Source: a virus
Direction: 5' to 3' (one strand)
DNA: 64,000 nt
Virus record (IMG/VR): IMGVR_UViG_3300049201_000035
Coordinates: 1,143 to 65,142 of that record
The translations under genes and the position numbers were made by a program. A model generated the notes under the pieces. That model saw only the letters and a list, made by a program, of their open reading frames with translations, did not search any database and had not been told where the DNA came from. Of this stretch, positions 8,901 to 48,929 are shown piece after piece (within the stretch, counting starts at the first letter, position 1; each line of letters begins with the position of its first letter).

Positions 8901-10125
8901 CCAGAATGTCGGCACGCTGATGGATAGCAGCGCATCGACCGCCGACCAGGTGGGTAGCATCATTGGTATTATCACCTTTGCCATTACGTCCGCCCGGGAT
9001 GCGATGTTGAAAGCATCTGACCTGGCCACAGAAATGGACGCTCAGGTCGAAAACTACCAAAACCTTGCAAACGAGTTAGCCGGAGTCAATTACCTGCTTG
9101 AACGTCAAAAAGTTTTGCTAGAAGACCTGCAAGGAGTGGACCGCGCTCAGGGAGTTCTTTCTCTTTATGATAAATACGCCCAACAGCAAGCCGACGCATT
9201 GCAAAGGTTACAGGATTTGACAGTTGACACAATCGCCTCCCAAAAAGAAGTTTTTGTGGATCCAGTTTTCAATACCAAGGTCGAGAACAAAGGATTTAAG
9301 GGCTTTTGGACAAACCTGATGACCGGCGGTAAAGCCAAAACGAAAATCGAATACCAATTCGAAAGTGTTGACACATCAGGCTTTGACGATATCGAGGATT
9401 ATATCAACCTTTTGGCTCAGATCAAAGCAGGAGGCGGAAAGTTGTTCGGAAAAGAAGTGGTCGAAGCTGACGTGAAGGCGCTGGAAGAACTGATCAATAC
9501 TTATAACGAGGCAGTCGAGCAGCAAAAGGCTTTGATGGAAGAGTTGAGACAATATTATACAGCGACCACTCAGGAAGGAATTGTAGATAGTATTGTTCAG
9601 GGATTCATTGACGGAAAACGATCAGCGCAGGACTTCGCTGAGGACTTTGAGCAAATGATGTTGAAGGCGGTTCAGAACTCGCTTAAAGCGAATCTGCTGG
9701 ATGCTGACATGAAAGCCTTCTACGATAAATTCGCTGAATATTCACTGAGTGATTACACCTTGACTGACGCCGAGATTGCCGAATTGAAGGTCCTTTACAA
9801 CAAGATCATCGAAGAAGGTCAGAAGAAATTTGACGACATCGAAGCGATTACCGGCGTTGATTTGAACCAAAATGAAGGCAGTGCTCCAAAAGCCCAGACT
9901 GGAACCATTGCGGCGGCCAGCGAGGAAACAGTTTCACAAATGCTAGGCCAGTTCAATGCATTGCGAATACATGCCGCTGAGAACGTCAATGTAGCCAGGG
10001 GGATGTTGCTCGAAATGTCCGCAATCAACCGAAATACGCAGGAATTATACGCAATGCGTCGATCTTTAGAGGGCATCGAAAGAGCGATGTCTGCCGACCA
10101 GTTAAGGGCGGTTGGAGGAATCTAG
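5974..10125 (+). CDS. Tape measure protein
   Basis: 1383 aa coiled-coil; tape-measure domain FETMLGSK..AATTPFDL..QLLAYG. Confidence 0.93.
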   Translation: MNDQSGALSFEAAIGNSQLSKDIAQIKGQISGLVRDVEKETKGIDAAFENLGKVAAGAFVFNELRQLPAQLIRVRGEFQQLEIAFETMLGSKSKADKLFADVVKLAATTPFDLKGVASGAKQLLAYGVASEDITKTLTRLGDIAAGLSIPLGDLTYLYGTTRTQGRLFSADLNQFVGRGIPLIKLLADQFKVAESEVKGLVESGKVGFPEVEKAINTLTNSGGMFAGLMEKQSKSLTGLYSNFQDAVEQAYNEVGKGQQGLLADSLKFGTTVVQNYQPILDVLKVLVVSYGAYKAAIISTAAVQAIAANQSAIRSFIGLAGSIRSAADAQALFNLVTNANPYVLAATALVALITAVAVFRDTATEAEKAQQRLNGEIAKADKIDTERKIKVDELRKAIQDENLTQEQRKKKLQELIALSPSHLKAINAENIATAESTQAIEDYIKAQKERMVQQALFDEKEKTRARIAELKAGKLDKDFAPSAFSSAGLMMAQGASGGTFNAEKEAQIEIRKNRDQAILELQEYEKTLVAKSRDGIAERKKLRDEAHKGDVADSARTVKFYDEQIKSLEDQQTTSTSAAGFKALQKQIDQLDAKRRSITGELTAEQKKYAKDAEKIGPYGSISYWDNIAQKAQEIISKTPGKNVALLTAQTKIKADAEQKAEDLRQRYAVKSFEEEIEQKRQQYEVYQRWVDAYGKQAADEQFSTLVKGNESYLDYLNTQIRKLEGLKAFTPLNKTDQGSLDLLNTERNRLTGKETGMEAFNKQLEDAQRNSQSLIETLDRLTAIQESLGTPRTDDDFAKLKQVAELRENIKRELNDVLNEFLADANVNGAKVLQIEKKYTQLTIEAKKKATGVQLKEILKSIDKAKDAELDAIKDTEFEQSDSYKKIHREYLDYGRKQIQQRILDIEEALKKEKLSIEVRKQLEIQLAKTREELSKNTADGIRSAAGILASIMGDTSIKVSKSFAISMRDISNAVQNVGTLMDSSASTADQVGSIIGIITFAITSARDAMLKASDLATEMDAQVENYQNLANELAGVNYLLERQKVLLEDLQGVDRAQGVLSLYDKYAQQQADALQRLQDLTVDTIASQKEVFVDPVFNTKVENKGFKGFWTNLMTGGKAKTKIEYQFESVDTSGFDDIEDYINLLAQIKAGGGKLFGKEVVEADVKALEELINTYNEAVEQQKALMEELRQYYTATTQEGIVDSIVQGFIDGKRSAQDFAEDFEQMMLKAVQNSLKANLLDADMKAFYDKFAEYSLSDYTLTDAEIAELKVLYNKIIEEGQKKFDDIEAITGVDLNQNEGSAPKAQTGTIAAASEETVSQMLGQFNALRIHAAENVNVARGMLLEMSAINRNTQELYAMRRSLEGIERAMSADQLRAVGGI

Positions 10126-44976: not shown

Positions 44977-45744
44977 ATGCAGATTATATCAACAAGAAAC
45001 AGCCAATCAGCACTGGCGCCAGTTATCGAAGAGAGGTTTACATCCGAAGAGCTGAGCGCATTGCATCTATCCACTCCGACAGATATTAATCCCAAAGTTC
45101 GAGAAACCGACACAATCGGGCTGGCAGAGATGATAAGCATGACGGTGAATTCGAGAATGGGTTGGCAGCCACGAAGCGAGAAGGATGAAATGGCGTTCTT
45201 GGCGATGATCGAAAGGGACATTCAGAAATTCCCAAACCTCACCCAAAACGAAGTCCTGCACATCCTGAACCTGGGATTGGACGGGGAATTCACAGAAGGC
45301 CGCGTTTTCTTTAACTCATCGGAGTTTGTCAGGTGGATGAAAAAGTACATCGAGACGAAGAGAGTTCCAGCTTTGAAGAAAAAGGGGCAATTGGACCATC
45401 AGATCAAAGACGAGCCTATTTCGGCGACTCACCAAGAAAGACTGAAAAGCGCATCTGACATTGCCAACGGATATGCTGACTCAAAACGCGAAGATCCAGA
45501 ATTCGAAGCATTCGCTTGCTCAGGTCTTTACCAGAACCTTGAATTCCTGGGGATTTACTCGATGACTGAAGAGCAGAAAATGAGGGTGTATCACCAGGTA
45601 TTAAATGAGAATCCTAAAAAATCGGATGACGAGATACGGATTAAATGCCAGGTAAAAGCCTACAACGAATTCATTTCCATGCTTGTGGAGTCTGATTCGA
45701 AACTGACCGATACCGGTAAACTTGAAAGACTTACGAAGCCATGA
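44977..45744 (+). CDS. Hypothetical replication-module protein
   Basis: 255 aa between initiator and DnaB. Confidence 0.6.
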   Translation: MQIISTRNSQSALAPVIEERFTSEELSALHLSTPTDINPKVRETDTIGLAEMISMTVNSRMGWQPRSEKDEMAFLAMIERDIQKFPNLTQNEVLHILNLGLDGEFTEGRVFFNSSEFVRWMKKYIETKRVPALKKKGQLDHQIKDEPISATHQERLKSASDIANGYADSKREDPEFEAFACSGLYQNLEFLGIYSMTEEQKMRVYHQVLNENPKKSDDEIRIKCQVKAYNEFISMLVESDSKLTDTGKLERLTKP

Positions 45745-47234
45745 GCAACTCTGCAAAATTTAAATCCAGTAACACGGCTCGGGCTTACGGTCAGGATTAT
45801 GGAAAACTTCCACCACAGTCTATCGAGACAGAAGAGGCGGTACTAGGAGCCATCATTATTGAAAAGGACGCTCTAACAGACGTAATTGACATCCTGCGTC
45901 CGGAAAGTTTTTACAAAGAAGCTCACGTGAGGATTTATACAGCGATATTGTCACTTTTCGCTGAATCGGAGCCTATTGATATAATTACGGTGACCTCGAA
46001 GCTTAGGAGCACAGGAGAATTAGAGGTCATAGGAGGGATCCAATATATTATGGAGCTCACCAGTAAAGTGAATTCCGGAGCCCACATCGAATACCACGCC
46101 AGGATAGTCGTTCAATCATCGATCAAGCGAGAATTAATCCGAATAGGATCAGAAGTGCAGCGCGAAGCTTACGAAGACACCGTGGATGTGTTCAGTCTAC
46201 TTGACAAAACAGAGTCCGCCTTCTTCGCGCTGACCGAAAAGAGCATTCGCAAGAGCTACGCCGACATGAATTCCATCATGAAGCAAACGCTGAGCGAGCT
46301 CGATATGAAGAAAAACCATAAGGATGGGCTGACCGGCGTTGCGTCTGGATTTACTGATCTGGACCGGCTTACATCGGGTTGGCAGAAGTCAGAATTGACG
46401 ATACTTGCGGCTCGGCCGGCGATGGGAAAAACGGCCTTTGTGGTCTCCTCGCTGCGAAATGCAGCCGTTGAGTTCGATACGCCGGTCGCAATTTTCTCCC
46501 TTGAAATGTCTTCGGTTCAATTGGTCAACAGGTTGATATCTGCCGAAGCGGAGATCGATAGCGAAAAGATCAGAAAGGGAACATTATCGCAGGACGAGTG
46601 GGATCATCTTCACCAGCGTATTCAAAGGCTCACCCGGGCACCGATTTATATCGATGACACCCCGGCGCTTTCAATTCTTGAATTACGGGCTAAGTGCAGG
46701 CGGTTGAAGGCTCAGCATAACATTCAAATGATCGTCATTGATTATTTGCAGCTGATGACCGGCGATACCGGTGGAAAAGGGGCTGGCAACCGGGAGCAGG
46801 AGATTGCAATGATATCTCGATCACTTAAAAACTTAGCCAAGGAGCTCGATGTACCAGTGATCGCTTTGTCACAGCTGAGCCGGGCGGTCGAGACTAGGGG
46901 AGGGGAGAAAAGGCCAATGCTTTCAGACCTTCGAGAGTCGGGATCAATCGAGCAGGACGCGGATATGGTTATTTTCCTTTACCGGCCCGAGTACTACGGA
47001 ATACTCGAAGACGAGTCTGGAAACTCAGTAGCTGGAACAGGAGAGGTGATTGTTGCGAAGAACAGATCTGGTTCGCTTGATACGATCAGATTGAAGTTTG
47101 TCGGTAAATACACCAAGTTCTGCGATCTGAATGGAGGTCCGGTTAGGTATCCGGATCCAACTCCACGCGACCAGGTCATGCATGATTTTAACAGAAACAC
47201 GGCGCTCGACCGCGCAGGAAATCCCCCCTTCTAA
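45741..47234 (+). CDS. dnaB: Replicative DNA helicase DnaB
   Basis: ARPAMGKT, FSLEM, IDYLQL, LSQLSR, LRESGSIEQDAD. Confidence 0.97.
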   Translation: MSNSAKFKSSNTARAYGQDYGKLPPQSIETEEAVLGAIIIEKDALTDVIDILRPESFYKEAHVRIYTAILSLFAESEPIDIITVTSKLRSTGELEVIGGIQYIMELTSKVNSGAHIEYHARIVVQSSIKRELIRIGSEVQREAYEDTVDVFSLLDKTESAFFALTEKSIRKSYADMNSIMKQTLSELDMKKNHKDGLTGVASGFTDLDRLTSGWQKSELTILAARPAMGKTAFVVSSLRNAAVEFDTPVAIFSLEMSSVQLVNRLISAEAEIDSEKIRKGTLSQDEWDHLHQRIQRLTRAPIYIDDTPALSILELRAKCRRLKAQHNIQMIVIDYLQLMTGDTGGKGAGNREQEIAMISRSLKNLAKELDVPVIALSQLSRAVETRGGEKRPMLSDLRESGSIEQDADMVIFLYRPEYYGILEDESGNSVAGTGEVIVAKNRSGSLDTIRLKFVGKYTKFCDLNGGPVRYPDPTPRDQVMHDFNRNTALDRAGNPPF

Positions 47235-47323: not shown

Positions 47324-47773
47324 ATGAGAGGCAGAACTAGCAGGCATCAGTTTTACAAAAAAGCTTATTCGCTATATGAATCCGGACTGTCTCTTTCAGA
47401 GGTTGCCCAATCGGTCGGCGTTACCAGGCAATGCGTTTTCAAAGCATTCTCTGCACGGGGTTTTCAATTGAGAAAAAAGAGCGAACGTCCTTTTAAAATG
47501 TATAAGGGAGTAAAGTTCACTTTGCGAAACACCGGATATTATTCTGCAACTACTGGTAAGCGGGAGCTTATGCACCGATACATGTGGGAAGATCAAATCG
47601 GTAATATTCCAGAAGGGTGGGATATTCATCACATCAACGAAGTTAAGTCGGATAACCGAATTGAGAATTTCGAATGCCTCCCGAAGTCGGAGCATACCAG
47701 AAAGTATTCACCTCATAACAATCAATTCACAAGGGGGAGAAAAATAATAAGAGCTCACAATGATACATTTTAG
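47324..47773 (+). CDS. HNH endonuclease with N-terminal HTH
   Basis: MHRYMWE..IPEGWDIHHINEVKSDNRIEN. Confidence 0.88.
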   Translation: MRGRTSRHQFYKKAYSLYESGLSLSEVAQSVGVTRQCVFKAFSARGFQLRKKSERPFKMYKGVKFTLRNTGYYSATTGKRELMHRYMWEDQIGNIPEGWDIHHINEVKSDNRIENFECLPKSEHTRKYSPHNNQFTRGRKIIRAHNDTF

Positions 47774-48929
47774 CCTATTCAGTGGTATCGGAGGCTTCGA
47801 TCTTTCATCTCAGTGGATGGGGTGGAAAAACTACGTTAGCTGTGAGATTAACGAGTTTGGCAATAAGGTGCTCGAATATTACTGGCCAGGGGCCTACCAC
47901 CATAGAGACATTCATACTCTCGATTATGCAACAATTAACACTGAACTTTCAAAACGATTCGGAACCCACTGGAGAAACGATGATATCATCCTCTCAGGTG
48001 GGTTCCCATAAGGACCGTGCCAGCCTTATAGCTCAGCAGGTAAACGCCTTGGAAAGGAAGATGACCGGCACCTCTGGCCGCAGATGCTTAGAACAATTCG
48101 GGAGATTGAGCCGACTTGGGTTGTGGGCGAAAACGTTCGCGGGCTTACTAATTGGAATGGAGGGCTGGTATTCAACGAGGTGTGGTCTGACCTGGAAGCT
48201 CTCGGCTATGAAGTCATCCCGTTTCTACTTCCAGCTTGTGCCGTCGACGCACCGCACCGACGCGACCGAATATGGTTTATTGCCTACTCCGGTAGTAAGC
48301 GATATGGAGGGCGGAGACACGGACACGGTGAGTTTGAAGAACGGTCGGTTTGTCAGGATCAGCAAGGACGGGACGGAGTTCGGCGCGAAGATTCAACACG
48401 CGGCGAAGTTGTTGCCGACTCCGCAGGCGATCGACGGATCAGGGAAAGGTCGGGCTCTTCGGATGAAAACAGGAAATCGGAACCCGGACAGCGTGGGATC
48501 ATGGCGAGGGGATTTGAAGGATTACGCGCACATGGACTTACTCCCTACTCCCAGAGCAAACGATTCAGAGAAGCGCGGCCAGATTTCGGCCGATCCAAGG
48601 AACGGGCTACCGGGGCTAGCGGTAAATGGATTTTTACCGACACAAACGGCCAGCAGCGACGCGAAGGGAGGTTGTACACGGCCGAACGAGAAGCGGCAGA
48701 ACGACACGTTGGCGCATTCGATTCATGGAATGGTCGGAGAACCTGGCAAGACTTCCCAACTCAATCCCCGGTTCGTTCTGGAAATGATGGGTTTCCCACC
48801 GGACTGGACGGAATTACCCTTTCAAAGTGGCGAAATGAATCCATAAAAGCGGCCGGCAATGCGATCGTTCCGCAAGTAGCCTTCCAGATTTTTCAAGCAA
48901 TACAACAGTTTCACGATACAAAACTTTAA
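47760..48929 (+). pseudogene. C5-cytosine DNA methyltransferase alpha chain interrupted by in-frame TAA (48009-48011); pseudogene or recoded
   Basis: FSGIGGFD (I), CEIN (II), GGFP*GPCQ (IV), GENV (VI), HRRDRIWF (VIII), GNAIVP (X), all in one frame. Confidence 0.8.
48061..48846 (+). CDS. Nested alternative-frame methyltransferase beta subunit
   Basis: +1 frame inside the MTase; four LLPTP-like modules; QLNPRFVLEMMGFPPDWT motif IX-like. Confidence 0.72.
   Translation: MTGTSGRRCLEQFGRLSRLGLWAKTFAGLLIGMEGWYSTRCGLTWKLSAMKSSRFYFQLVPSTHRTDATEYGLLPTPVVSDMEGGDTDTVSLKNGRFVRISKDGTEFGAKIQHAAKLLPTPQAIDGSGKGRALRMKTGNRNPDSVGSWRGDLKDYAHMDLLPTPRANDSEKRGQISADPRNGLPGLAVNGFLPTQTASSDAKGGCTRPNEKRQNDTLAHSIHGMVGEPGKTSQLNPRFVLEMMGFPPDWTELPFQSGEMNP

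Follow-up and report, generated by a model that had tools for sequence, protein, structure and literature searches.

A conserved stop codon in the catalytic motif of a two-subunit phage cytosine methylase gene, its association with HNH endonuclease genes, and a possible ribosomal hop

The DNA considered here is a stretch of 64,000 nucleotides (nt), called the window below, that spans positions 1,143 to 65,142 of the virus record IMGVR_UViG_3300049201_000035, a complete 79.6-kb IMG/VR record with terminal repeats. The window carries a gene for a cytosine-5 (C5) DNA methylase that is interrupted by an in-frame stop codon within motif IV, the catalytic motif GGFPCQ. Positions 48003-48023 read TTC CCA TAA GGA CCG TGC CAG, in frame with the ATG at 47760, and tblastn alignment with two annotated Bacteroides-phage methylases (GGFP---CQPFS against GGFP*GPCQPYS) shows that the insert amounts to exactly 9 extra nt. 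Upstream of the stop this frame, which we call alpha, contains motif I (FSGIGG). Downstream of the stop the same frame is open over 48012-48929 and contains CQPYSSAGKRLGKEDDRHLWP, ENV (motif VI), HRRDRIWF (motif VIII) and GNAIVPQV (motif X), and Pfam family PF00145 matches on both sides (E=5.6e-5 and E=1.9e-24). Motifs I, IV (PCQ), VI, VIII and X thus follow one another in the order of a C5 methylase, with motif IV whole only when the 9 nt are skipped. Motif IX lies outside the alpha frame, in an open reading frame (ORF) nested in the +1 frame, which we call beta. The gene is preceded by genes for an HNH endonuclease, which overlaps the methylase start by 14 nt, and for a DnaB-type helicase. 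The coordinates of these features are collected in Table 1, where the codons before and after the interruption are named, after the interpretation developed below, the take-off and landing codons.

Table 1. Features at the interrupted methylase locus, in window coordinates
Feature	Position	Strand	Basis or description
DnaB-type replicative helicase gene	45741..47234	+	ORF; abuts methylase in cassette-free relatives
Free-standing HNH endonuclease gene, helix-turn-helix (HTH) plus HNH_3	47324..47773	+	Pfam HNH_3 E=9.8e-16; PHROGs HNH endonuclease E=1.3e-17
Methylase alpha N-fragment ORF	47760..48011	+	83 codons, motif I FSGIGG ... GGFP, ends at in-frame TAA; PF00145
Take-off codon CCA	48006..48008	+	Pro in the catalytic dipeptide Pro-Cys
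Proposed untranslated gap TAA GGA	48009..48014	+	stop codon plus one codon
Proposed landing codon CCG	48015..48017	+	sequence read
Resumed alpha frame	48018..48929	+	Cys-Gln of IV, VI, VIII, low-complexity middle, X, stop TAA; PF00145 E=1.9e-24
Nested beta ORF, LLPTP repeats and motif IX-like LNPRFVLEMMGFPPDWT	48061..48846	+ (+1 frame)	261 aa; phrog_1008 E=1.8e-27; 2162 homologs

The interruption recurs in independent data. Two soil-metagenome runs from different studies yielded contigs of about 79.5 kb that are identical over 47700-48400, with word depths of 60 and 40 and no indel, one of these runs perhaps being itself the source of the record. Two loci assembled from other runs (L005 and L006) carry the identical 26-nt GGGTTCCCATAAGGACCGTGCCAGCC within otherwise diverged genes. 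Their synteny is that of the window (HNH gene, 83-codon ORF, nested ORF), their nested beta products share only 69% and 56% identity with that of the window, and in all three genomes the alpha frame has been kept open for 284-349 codons. The two identical soil contigs and the shared insert rule out a sequencing or assembly error, and these comparisons indicate that the stop is real and old.

A search with the 83-residue N-fragment alone showed how widespread the interruption is. Among 80 protein clusters retrieved from JGI, ENA, Logan and NCBI data, 71 end exactly at ...GGFP; these are 83 or 78 residues long (one has 92) and 51-86% identical to the query. DNA scans of IMG/VR, together with loci found by similarity to the N-fragment, yielded 77 interrupted loci after removal of redundancy, and 70 relatives that lack the interruption. 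About 12 further interrupted sites were found in bacterial genomes and metagenome-assembled genomes from several phyla, for an overall set of about 90 interrupted phage or prophage loci from many studies and habitats. One of the bacteria is a cultured isolate, Muriventricola aceti H5_61, whose prophage has an HNH domain in frame and reads GGFP-TGA-CCC-CQ at the site (L339). Most of the DNA loci were found with patterns that fix CCN at take-off and TGYCARCC after landing; for these two features only the protein-seeded sets, which are smaller and consistent with the remaining loci, are free of bias. The GenBank phage set contained no near-identical phage, and a protein search of it with the N-fragment returned only uninterrupted relatives, such as those of a Porphyromonas phage and of phage Lily. 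The exact degenerate 9-nt pattern had 0 matches in IMG/VR, the window's own record probably lying outside the searched set, and a metagenome scan for P-x-x-P-C-Q gave mostly chance matches, the real ones being L065, L080 and L113. Mycobacterium phage Llama (L362, genes 74/75) has a C5 methylase annotated as two genes, in which the frame changes just past ENV and motifs VIII and X lie in the +1 frame; this break may be a frameshift site or a pseudogene, and because it does not fall at PCQ it was rejected as an example of the same interruption.

An earlier, sequence-only reading of the window had described a 9-nt in-frame insert in GGFPCQ, unlike a typical sequencing error, with every other motif in the same frame and some 900 nt of undecayed sequence downstream. 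The sequence and the alignment agree exactly with the insert as described, the contigs from the two soil runs and the many homologs dispose of sequencing error, and the open downstream frame bears out the absence of decay. The statement about the motifs holds for motif I, ENV, HRRDR and motif X and fails for motif IX, which belongs to beta.

The anatomy of the insert follows a strict plan in the interrupted loci: G-G-F-P with the proline encoded by CCN, then a stop codon, then either nothing, one nt or one codon, then the landing codon, and finally TGY CAR. All three stop codons are used (TAA at 33, TGA at 24 and TAG at 20 of the 77 loci). The insert is 6 nt long at about 65 loci, 9 nt at 11 and 7 nt at two; a scan for 8-nt inserts found no real site, and 3-nt inserts, which would consist of just the stop and leave no landing codon, were scanned for and not found. 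Of the 11 nine-nt inserts, 6 have a second stop as their middle codon; this codon is GGA in the window's clade and TGG once. When any codon was allowed between two proline codons, a stop was present in all 34 real methylase sites and no sense codon was found in its place. The two 7-nt inserts read CCA TGAC TCA TGT (L305, ~9409-9435, minus strand) and CCA TGAA TCA TGC (L306, 7934-7960, plus strand), and beyond them alpha continues in the +1 frame for 186 and 305 codons, reaching LGNAVVPQ and YGNAIVP, respectively. In both of these alleles CCATGA also creates an ATG in the beta frame.

The codons on the two sides of the gap behave differently from each other. The take-off codon is CCN in every allele examined, in agreement with all 71 of the GGFP-ending clusters, for which the search was unbiased; within this family CCC is avoided, being present in 1 of 71 interrupted against 12 of 65 uninterrupted alleles. 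The landing codon varies (CCN 38, CTN 26, TCR 12 and TTA 1 among the 77 loci) and yet never has a purine at position 1 or 2. Such a YYN set would be expected of re-pairing by tRNA-Pro, because its anticodon is NGG and the two G's accept either C or U. Of the 38 landing codons that depend on a G-U pair, 37 have A or G as their last base, and the YYN restriction is absent from chance occurrences of this pattern in bacterial genomes. Two synonymous differences lie just upstream: the second Gly codon of GGFP is GGG or GGC in 69 of 71 interrupted alleles and GGA in 46 of 65 intact ones, and the Phe codon before take-off is TTC in 70 of 71 interrupted compared with 49 of 65 intact alleles. These differences (codons -9 and -6 before the stop) could mark a co-conversion tract of a cassette, or could be a signal for nuclease immunity or for hopping. 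A 5-bp mini-hairpin can also be drawn in the window, in which GGUUC (48001-48005) pairs with GGACC (48012-48016) and CCAUAA forms the loop; it is specific to the TAA GGA CCG clade and offers no covariation to test.

Both halves of the interrupted gene retain the marks of protein-coding sequence. In 216 pairs of interrupted alleles the N-fragment has a median ratio of nonsynonymous to synonymous divergence (dN/dS) of 0.15 at a dS of about 1.2. On the 3' side of the landing codon the frame-0 peptide C-Q-P-(F/Y)-S-x-A-G-K-R is kept while its codons vary, Ser codons being of the AGY as well as the TCN type and Arg codons CGN as well as AGA, and such switching between codon families argues for selection on frame 0 at the protein level. 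Motif X, which is conserved and located beyond the beta stop, has stayed in frame at 65 of the 68 interrupted loci that could be evaluated and at 58 of 60 intact ones, so that extra frame breaks number 3 of 68 and 2 of 60. The signs of a pseudogene, namely relaxed selection and added frameshifts or stops, were therefore not found among these alleles. By these measures the interrupted gene is not dead, and simple inactivation, which the sequence-only reading had kept as an alternative, is unlikely.

Ordinary routes to a second protein were also considered. In frame, the stretch from the stop to the catalytic Cys lacks ATG, GTG and TTG codons, and the first in-frame Met past the stop, the M of LWPQM at 48084, comes after PCQ. 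Where the final base of the landing codon joins the TG of the Cys codon to make ATG, GTG or TTG, the resulting codon is in the -1 frame with only short ORFs following it, and on that account it was rejected as a restart site. No tRNA genes were found in the 79.6-kb genome, and TAA is its commonest ordinary stop, terminating 44 of 83 long ORFs. A change of genetic code or a suppressor tRNA is ruled out by these facts and by the use of all three stops, and of double stops, in the relatives. Since both halves are under selection and the second has no start codon, ribosomes must reach the codons after the stop in frame and from upstream.

The interruption is strongly associated with HNH endonuclease genes. 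An HNH gene lies beside or inside 52 of the 77 interrupted methylase genes and none of the 70 intact ones; a homolog directly upstream, in the same position as in the window, was found at 37 interrupted loci and at no intact locus. At 15 interrupted loci an HTH-HNH protein is fused in frame into the N-terminal part and runs into ...IDVLSGGFP-stop, with matches to phrog_2340 (endonuclease, E=2.5e-19) and phrog_8446 (HNH, E=9e-12). The tally was made with seed proteins, and at least two loci that the seeds missed (L278 and L228) also have HNH genes. The fused architecture, with the HNH domain (CxxC...HHxDY...CxxCHxxxH) between motif I and ...IDVLSGGFP-stop, is seen in L222, L237, L252, L254, L270, L282, L303, L306, L339 and others. 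At such loci termination would produce a fusion of the methylase N-terminus with HNH, and a hop would produce a methylase with an internal HNH domain.

Synteny and phylogeny fit the same picture. By tblastn, the distance from the end of the DnaB gene to the start of the methylase gene is about 0-40 nt in intact loci and about 450-530 nt where an HNH gene intervenes, and two loci (L229 and L266) retain the insert but have no HNH gene. In a tree built from 90 columns of the catalytic core, interrupted alleles are interspersed with uninterrupted ones, with 33 parsimony changes; the tree is poorly resolved, and at least five of these changes are forced by well-supported branches. The HNH linkage, the DnaB synteny and the intermixed tree together make the pattern of a homing cassette. 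We propose that the window's HNH protein is the homing endonuclease of this cassette and, by analogy with T4, that the insert would block cutting by the linked enzyme and so render its carrier immune.

The host gene is of a kind already known. The methylase M.EcoHK31I consists of an alpha chain bearing motifs I-VIII plus X and a beta chain with motif IX, the latter encoded wholly in another frame inside the alpha gene, and both chains are needed (PMC2836561). In the window a frame-0 alpha chain is likewise accompanied by a nested +1-frame beta chain with a motif IX-like end, a likeness of architecture rather than one drawn from comparing the two beta sequences. On these grounds the gene appears to be a two-subunit methylase of the M.EcoHK31I type, although PMC2836561 mentions neither a stop in motif IV of alpha nor an adjacent HNH cassette. 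The +1 frame is open across the methylase DNA for 354 codons, alpha and beta are both open for about 790 nt, and distant relatives also have two open frames. The beta protein has four (L/F)LPT(P/Q) modules before its motif IX-like end; its family has over 2000 members, most of them unannotated, whose ORFs are called as genes elsewhere. An alternative start for beta is the ATG at 47980, upstream of the insert; if beta does begin there, an insertion at motif IV must also respect the beta frame. A double frameshift (+1/-1) that would join both frames into one protein was considered and dropped in view of the nested-gene precedent of M.EcoHK31I (PMC2836561).

Several relatives show variants of this architecture. 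Paenibacillus phage Lily (L361, gp62/gp63) is a rare case in which the beta ORF has been annotated, its nested gene being entered in GenBank as 'g62 internal gene'. Downstream of the interruption in L252 and L254, motif X is off the frame of the catalytic core and a beta-type NPEFLEWLMGY... runs in frame into EPDIPRVADRVPNRVDRIKCLGNAVVPQQ; this layout is either decay or a fusion of alpha and beta, for which the single-frame gp77 of Mycobacterium phage Girafales (L009) may be compared.

The explanation that we consider probable is that the methylase gene has been invaded by an HNH homing cassette that leaves a miniature gap over which ribosomes hop. The 9-nt insert would be the right-hand end of a mobile cassette that entered a two-subunit phage C5 methylase gene, and the cassette in the window would comprise the HNH gene, the alpha N-fragment and the insert. 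The insert breaks the GGFPCQ codons, where the gene is most conserved and which are presumably the target of the nuclease; with that target broken, and by analogy with T4 mobA and gene 60, a genome carrying the insert would be immune. Translation would proceed by decoding of CCA as proline, after which TAA enters the A site and release would be slow. Release after a C-terminal proline is known to be slow from work on SsrA tagging and on TnaC. The peptidyl-tRNA-Pro would then unpair, the mRNA would slide by 6 nt, and the anticodon would re-pair with CCG, so that decoding could resume at TGC and yield a continuous ...SGGFPCQPYS... alpha chain of 386 residues. Ribosomes that terminate instead would release the 83-residue N-fragment, and the full alpha chain would work with the nested beta chain. 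The predicted junction peptide is ...ILSGGFPCQPYSSAGK, whereas readthrough of the stop would give GGFP-X-GPCQ.

The local sequence has two of the defining features of a bypass site, in that the stop lies directly 3' of the take-off codon and is followed by a landing codon that the same tRNA can re-pair and then by the codon at which decoding resumes. The hop is favoured by the invariable proline at take-off, the YYN landing codons, the double stops, the 7-nt inserts and the lack of stop-only inserts. Because the take-off proline is decoded and the landing codon is only paired, the product would be GGFPCQ every time, whatever the landing codon. The sequence-only reading had already proposed a hop from proline to proline; the codon pattern, the conservation of the stop, the double stops and the 7-nt inserts now speak for it, while the hop as such remains a deduction from these data. 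Its further suggestion, that a programmed bypass throttles a toxic methylase, finds no support, the data pointing instead to the HNH cassette (52 of 77 against 0 of 70 loci). The footprint of a mobile element, which it had offered as a competitor to the hop, seems from the HNH linkage to be part of the explanation and not a rival to it.

Other readings of the locus must be weighed against the same observations. The HNH cassette might simply have killed alpha, the interrupted alleles being young, refreshed by gene conversion or kept open by the overlap with beta. The HNH linkage and the patchy phylogeny do show frequent horizontal movement, beta does overlap much of alpha, and homing elements sometimes inactivate genes. 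Damage of this sort sits poorly with beta having no known role without alpha (PMC2836561), with N-fragments that have diverged to a dS of about 1.2 at a dN/dS of 0.15, and with extra frame breaks that are no commoner in interrupted than in intact genes. Nor does it suit the window, L005 and L006, which share one unique insert, are strongly diverged and still keep alpha open, or the conserved motif X, which sits past the beta stop; and it leaves the YYN landing rule and the missing stop-only inserts unexplained. We regard it as unlikely. A somewhat smaller chance is given to an active enzyme in three pieces, with the 83-residue N-fragment and a separately initiated C-fragment associating non-covalently in company with beta, as happens with other phage genes that homing endonucleases have split. 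Purifying selection on both halves would be expected of such an enzyme, and T4 mobA also splits gene 39/60. C5 methylases can bear splitting, as in the natural alpha and beta chains of M.EcoHK31I (PMC2836561), and artificial splitting is reportedly tolerated (PMC3404938). This reading is opposed by the lack of an in-frame start codon before the Cys (a fragment initiated from the Met at 48084 would lack the catalytic residue) and by landing codons that are mostly CCN, CTA and TCA and not start codons, and it would place the break between the proline and the cysteine of the catalytic loop.

Readthrough, or a +1 frameshift in the 7-nt alleles, would instead add two or three residues to the catalytic loop, giving GGFP-X-G-P-CQ in the window. 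Most inserts are multiples of three, as readthrough would need, and the stop is often followed by C, which is a leaky context in E. coli. The product would differ by only two residues from that of a hop (review, PMC5009743). Two consecutive stops in 6 of the 11 nine-nt inserts, 7-nt inserts in two alleles, the use of all three stops, and the lack of a suppressor tRNA in this phage all tell against readthrough. It would also put Leu or Ser beside the catalytic Cys in about half of the alleles and leave invariant a dispensable proline two or three residues upstream. The Pro-Cys dipeptide of motif IV is itself invariant in C5 methylases. Readthrough therefore seems improbable. An artefact of sequencing or assembly, or a private and recent inactivation of this one genome, draws only on the prior expectation for in-frame stops in metagenome-assembled genomes; with identical contigs from two runs at depths of 60 and 40 and equivalent inserts in about 90 loci, it can be virtually discounted.

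The cassette with a ribosomal hop has its own difficulties. Throughout, we infer the hop, its efficiency and the immunity by comparing sequences. Most DNA loci were collected with patterns that already fixed the CCN take-off and the TGYCARCC that follows landing. One landing codon in about 90 loci breaks the YYN rule (GCG at L325, among the genome hits). The restriction to C-to-T changes at landing codons could partly reflect transition bias; a hand count gives about 9-10 independent changes at positions 1 and 2, all C to T, against one transversion (p ~0.01-0.1). Should beta start upstream, a need to maintain its frame would explain insert lengths in multiples of three equally well. After TAA, the imperfect CTA is used for landing more often than any other codon, CCA included, which would be odd if hopping efficiency were maximised; we speculate that the preference for CTA is a trade-off with nuclease immunity. 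Conserved RNA structure was not detected, the mean z being -0.6 in interrupted and +0.1 in intact alleles, and the local fold of the window (47975-48065) has a z of -0.15, which is not significant. Finally, the synthetic stop-hops of the 1987 work are said to be inefficient, at about 1%.

To our knowledge, natural translational bypass in bacteria and phages has for decades meant essentially one case, gene 60 of T4. The present loci raise the prospect of a natural and widespread family of stop-hops, in which ribosomes bypass 3-7 nt containing one or two stops from a proline codon to any codon with which tRNA-Pro can pair, and which serves HNH cassettes as a general route to immunity that spares the host's product; we lean, by a narrow balance, towards this broader view. 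If it is correct, gene 60 of T4 would stand at the far end of a common class instead of being unique, and selfish nucleases would be able to settle in a gene's most conserved codons without cost to the host. The roughly 100 natural alleles, with their varied stops, gaps and landing codons, would then amount to a mutational series for the rules by which a P-site tRNA re-pairs. Current annotation breaks genes of this kind into two or three pieces or calls them pseudogenes, so that phage methylase repertoires are undercounted; the signature of a catalytic motif, a stop, a matching codon and an adjacent HNH gene is one that annotation pipelines could recognise.

The closest parallel is provided by phage T4. 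The bypass of gene 60 and the mobA cassette were reportedly described in work by Huang in 1988 and by Bonocora in 2011. In T4 the mobA HNH gene and the bypass insert of gene 60 form one mobile element, and the insert protects its carrier from MobA (bioRxiv 10.1101/2022.08.31.505936). The methylase loci resemble this system in having an HNH gene beside a short non-coding insert in the region of an essential motif of a conserved gene, in having a stop directly after a take-off codon that can be read by the same tRNA as the landing codon, and in the patchy distribution of invaded and uninvaded alleles. They differ in the size of the gap, which is 50 nt in T4 and 3-6 nt here; in the tRNA, which is tRNA-Gly in T4 (GGA to GGA) and tRNA-Pro here (CCN to YYN); and in the host gene, a topoisomerase in T4 and a C5 methylase here. 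No take-off stem-loop or conserved structure was detected in the methylase alleles. The HNH families also differ, the methylase loci having an HNH_3 protein encoded upstream or an HTH-HNH fused in frame, and protection has been shown for T4, whereas bypass and immunity are proposed here from sequence comparison.

Engineered systems provide a second parallel. Synthetic stop-hops, built with a stop between matched codons, function in E. coli (Weiss, Dunn, Atkins and Gesteland 1987, cited after PMC5009743), and their 9 nt decoded as one amino acid correspond to the CCN-stop-CCN class among the window's relatives; the gap in the window has one codon more. The synthetic sites were engineered and of low efficiency, whereas the present ones are natural, conserved and linked to a mobile element. 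In 2016 natural in-frame stop-hops were not known (review, PMC5009743), and our literature search found no description of a stop in motif IV of a C5 methylase or of a natural stop-hop. In the HNH insertions of actinophage methylase genes (ShiLan domain, PMC11855218), the HNH is out of frame within an inserted segment that itself keeps the frame and presumably loops out of the protein; the abstract describes no stop-codon gap or hop, and this case was rejected as an example of the same arrangement. We propose that the methylase locus is a case of translational bypass coupled to an HNH homing cassette, which is a known kind, and that its new elements are the C5 methylase host, the use of tRNA-Pro, the series of landing codons, the 7-nt alleles and the negative scans.

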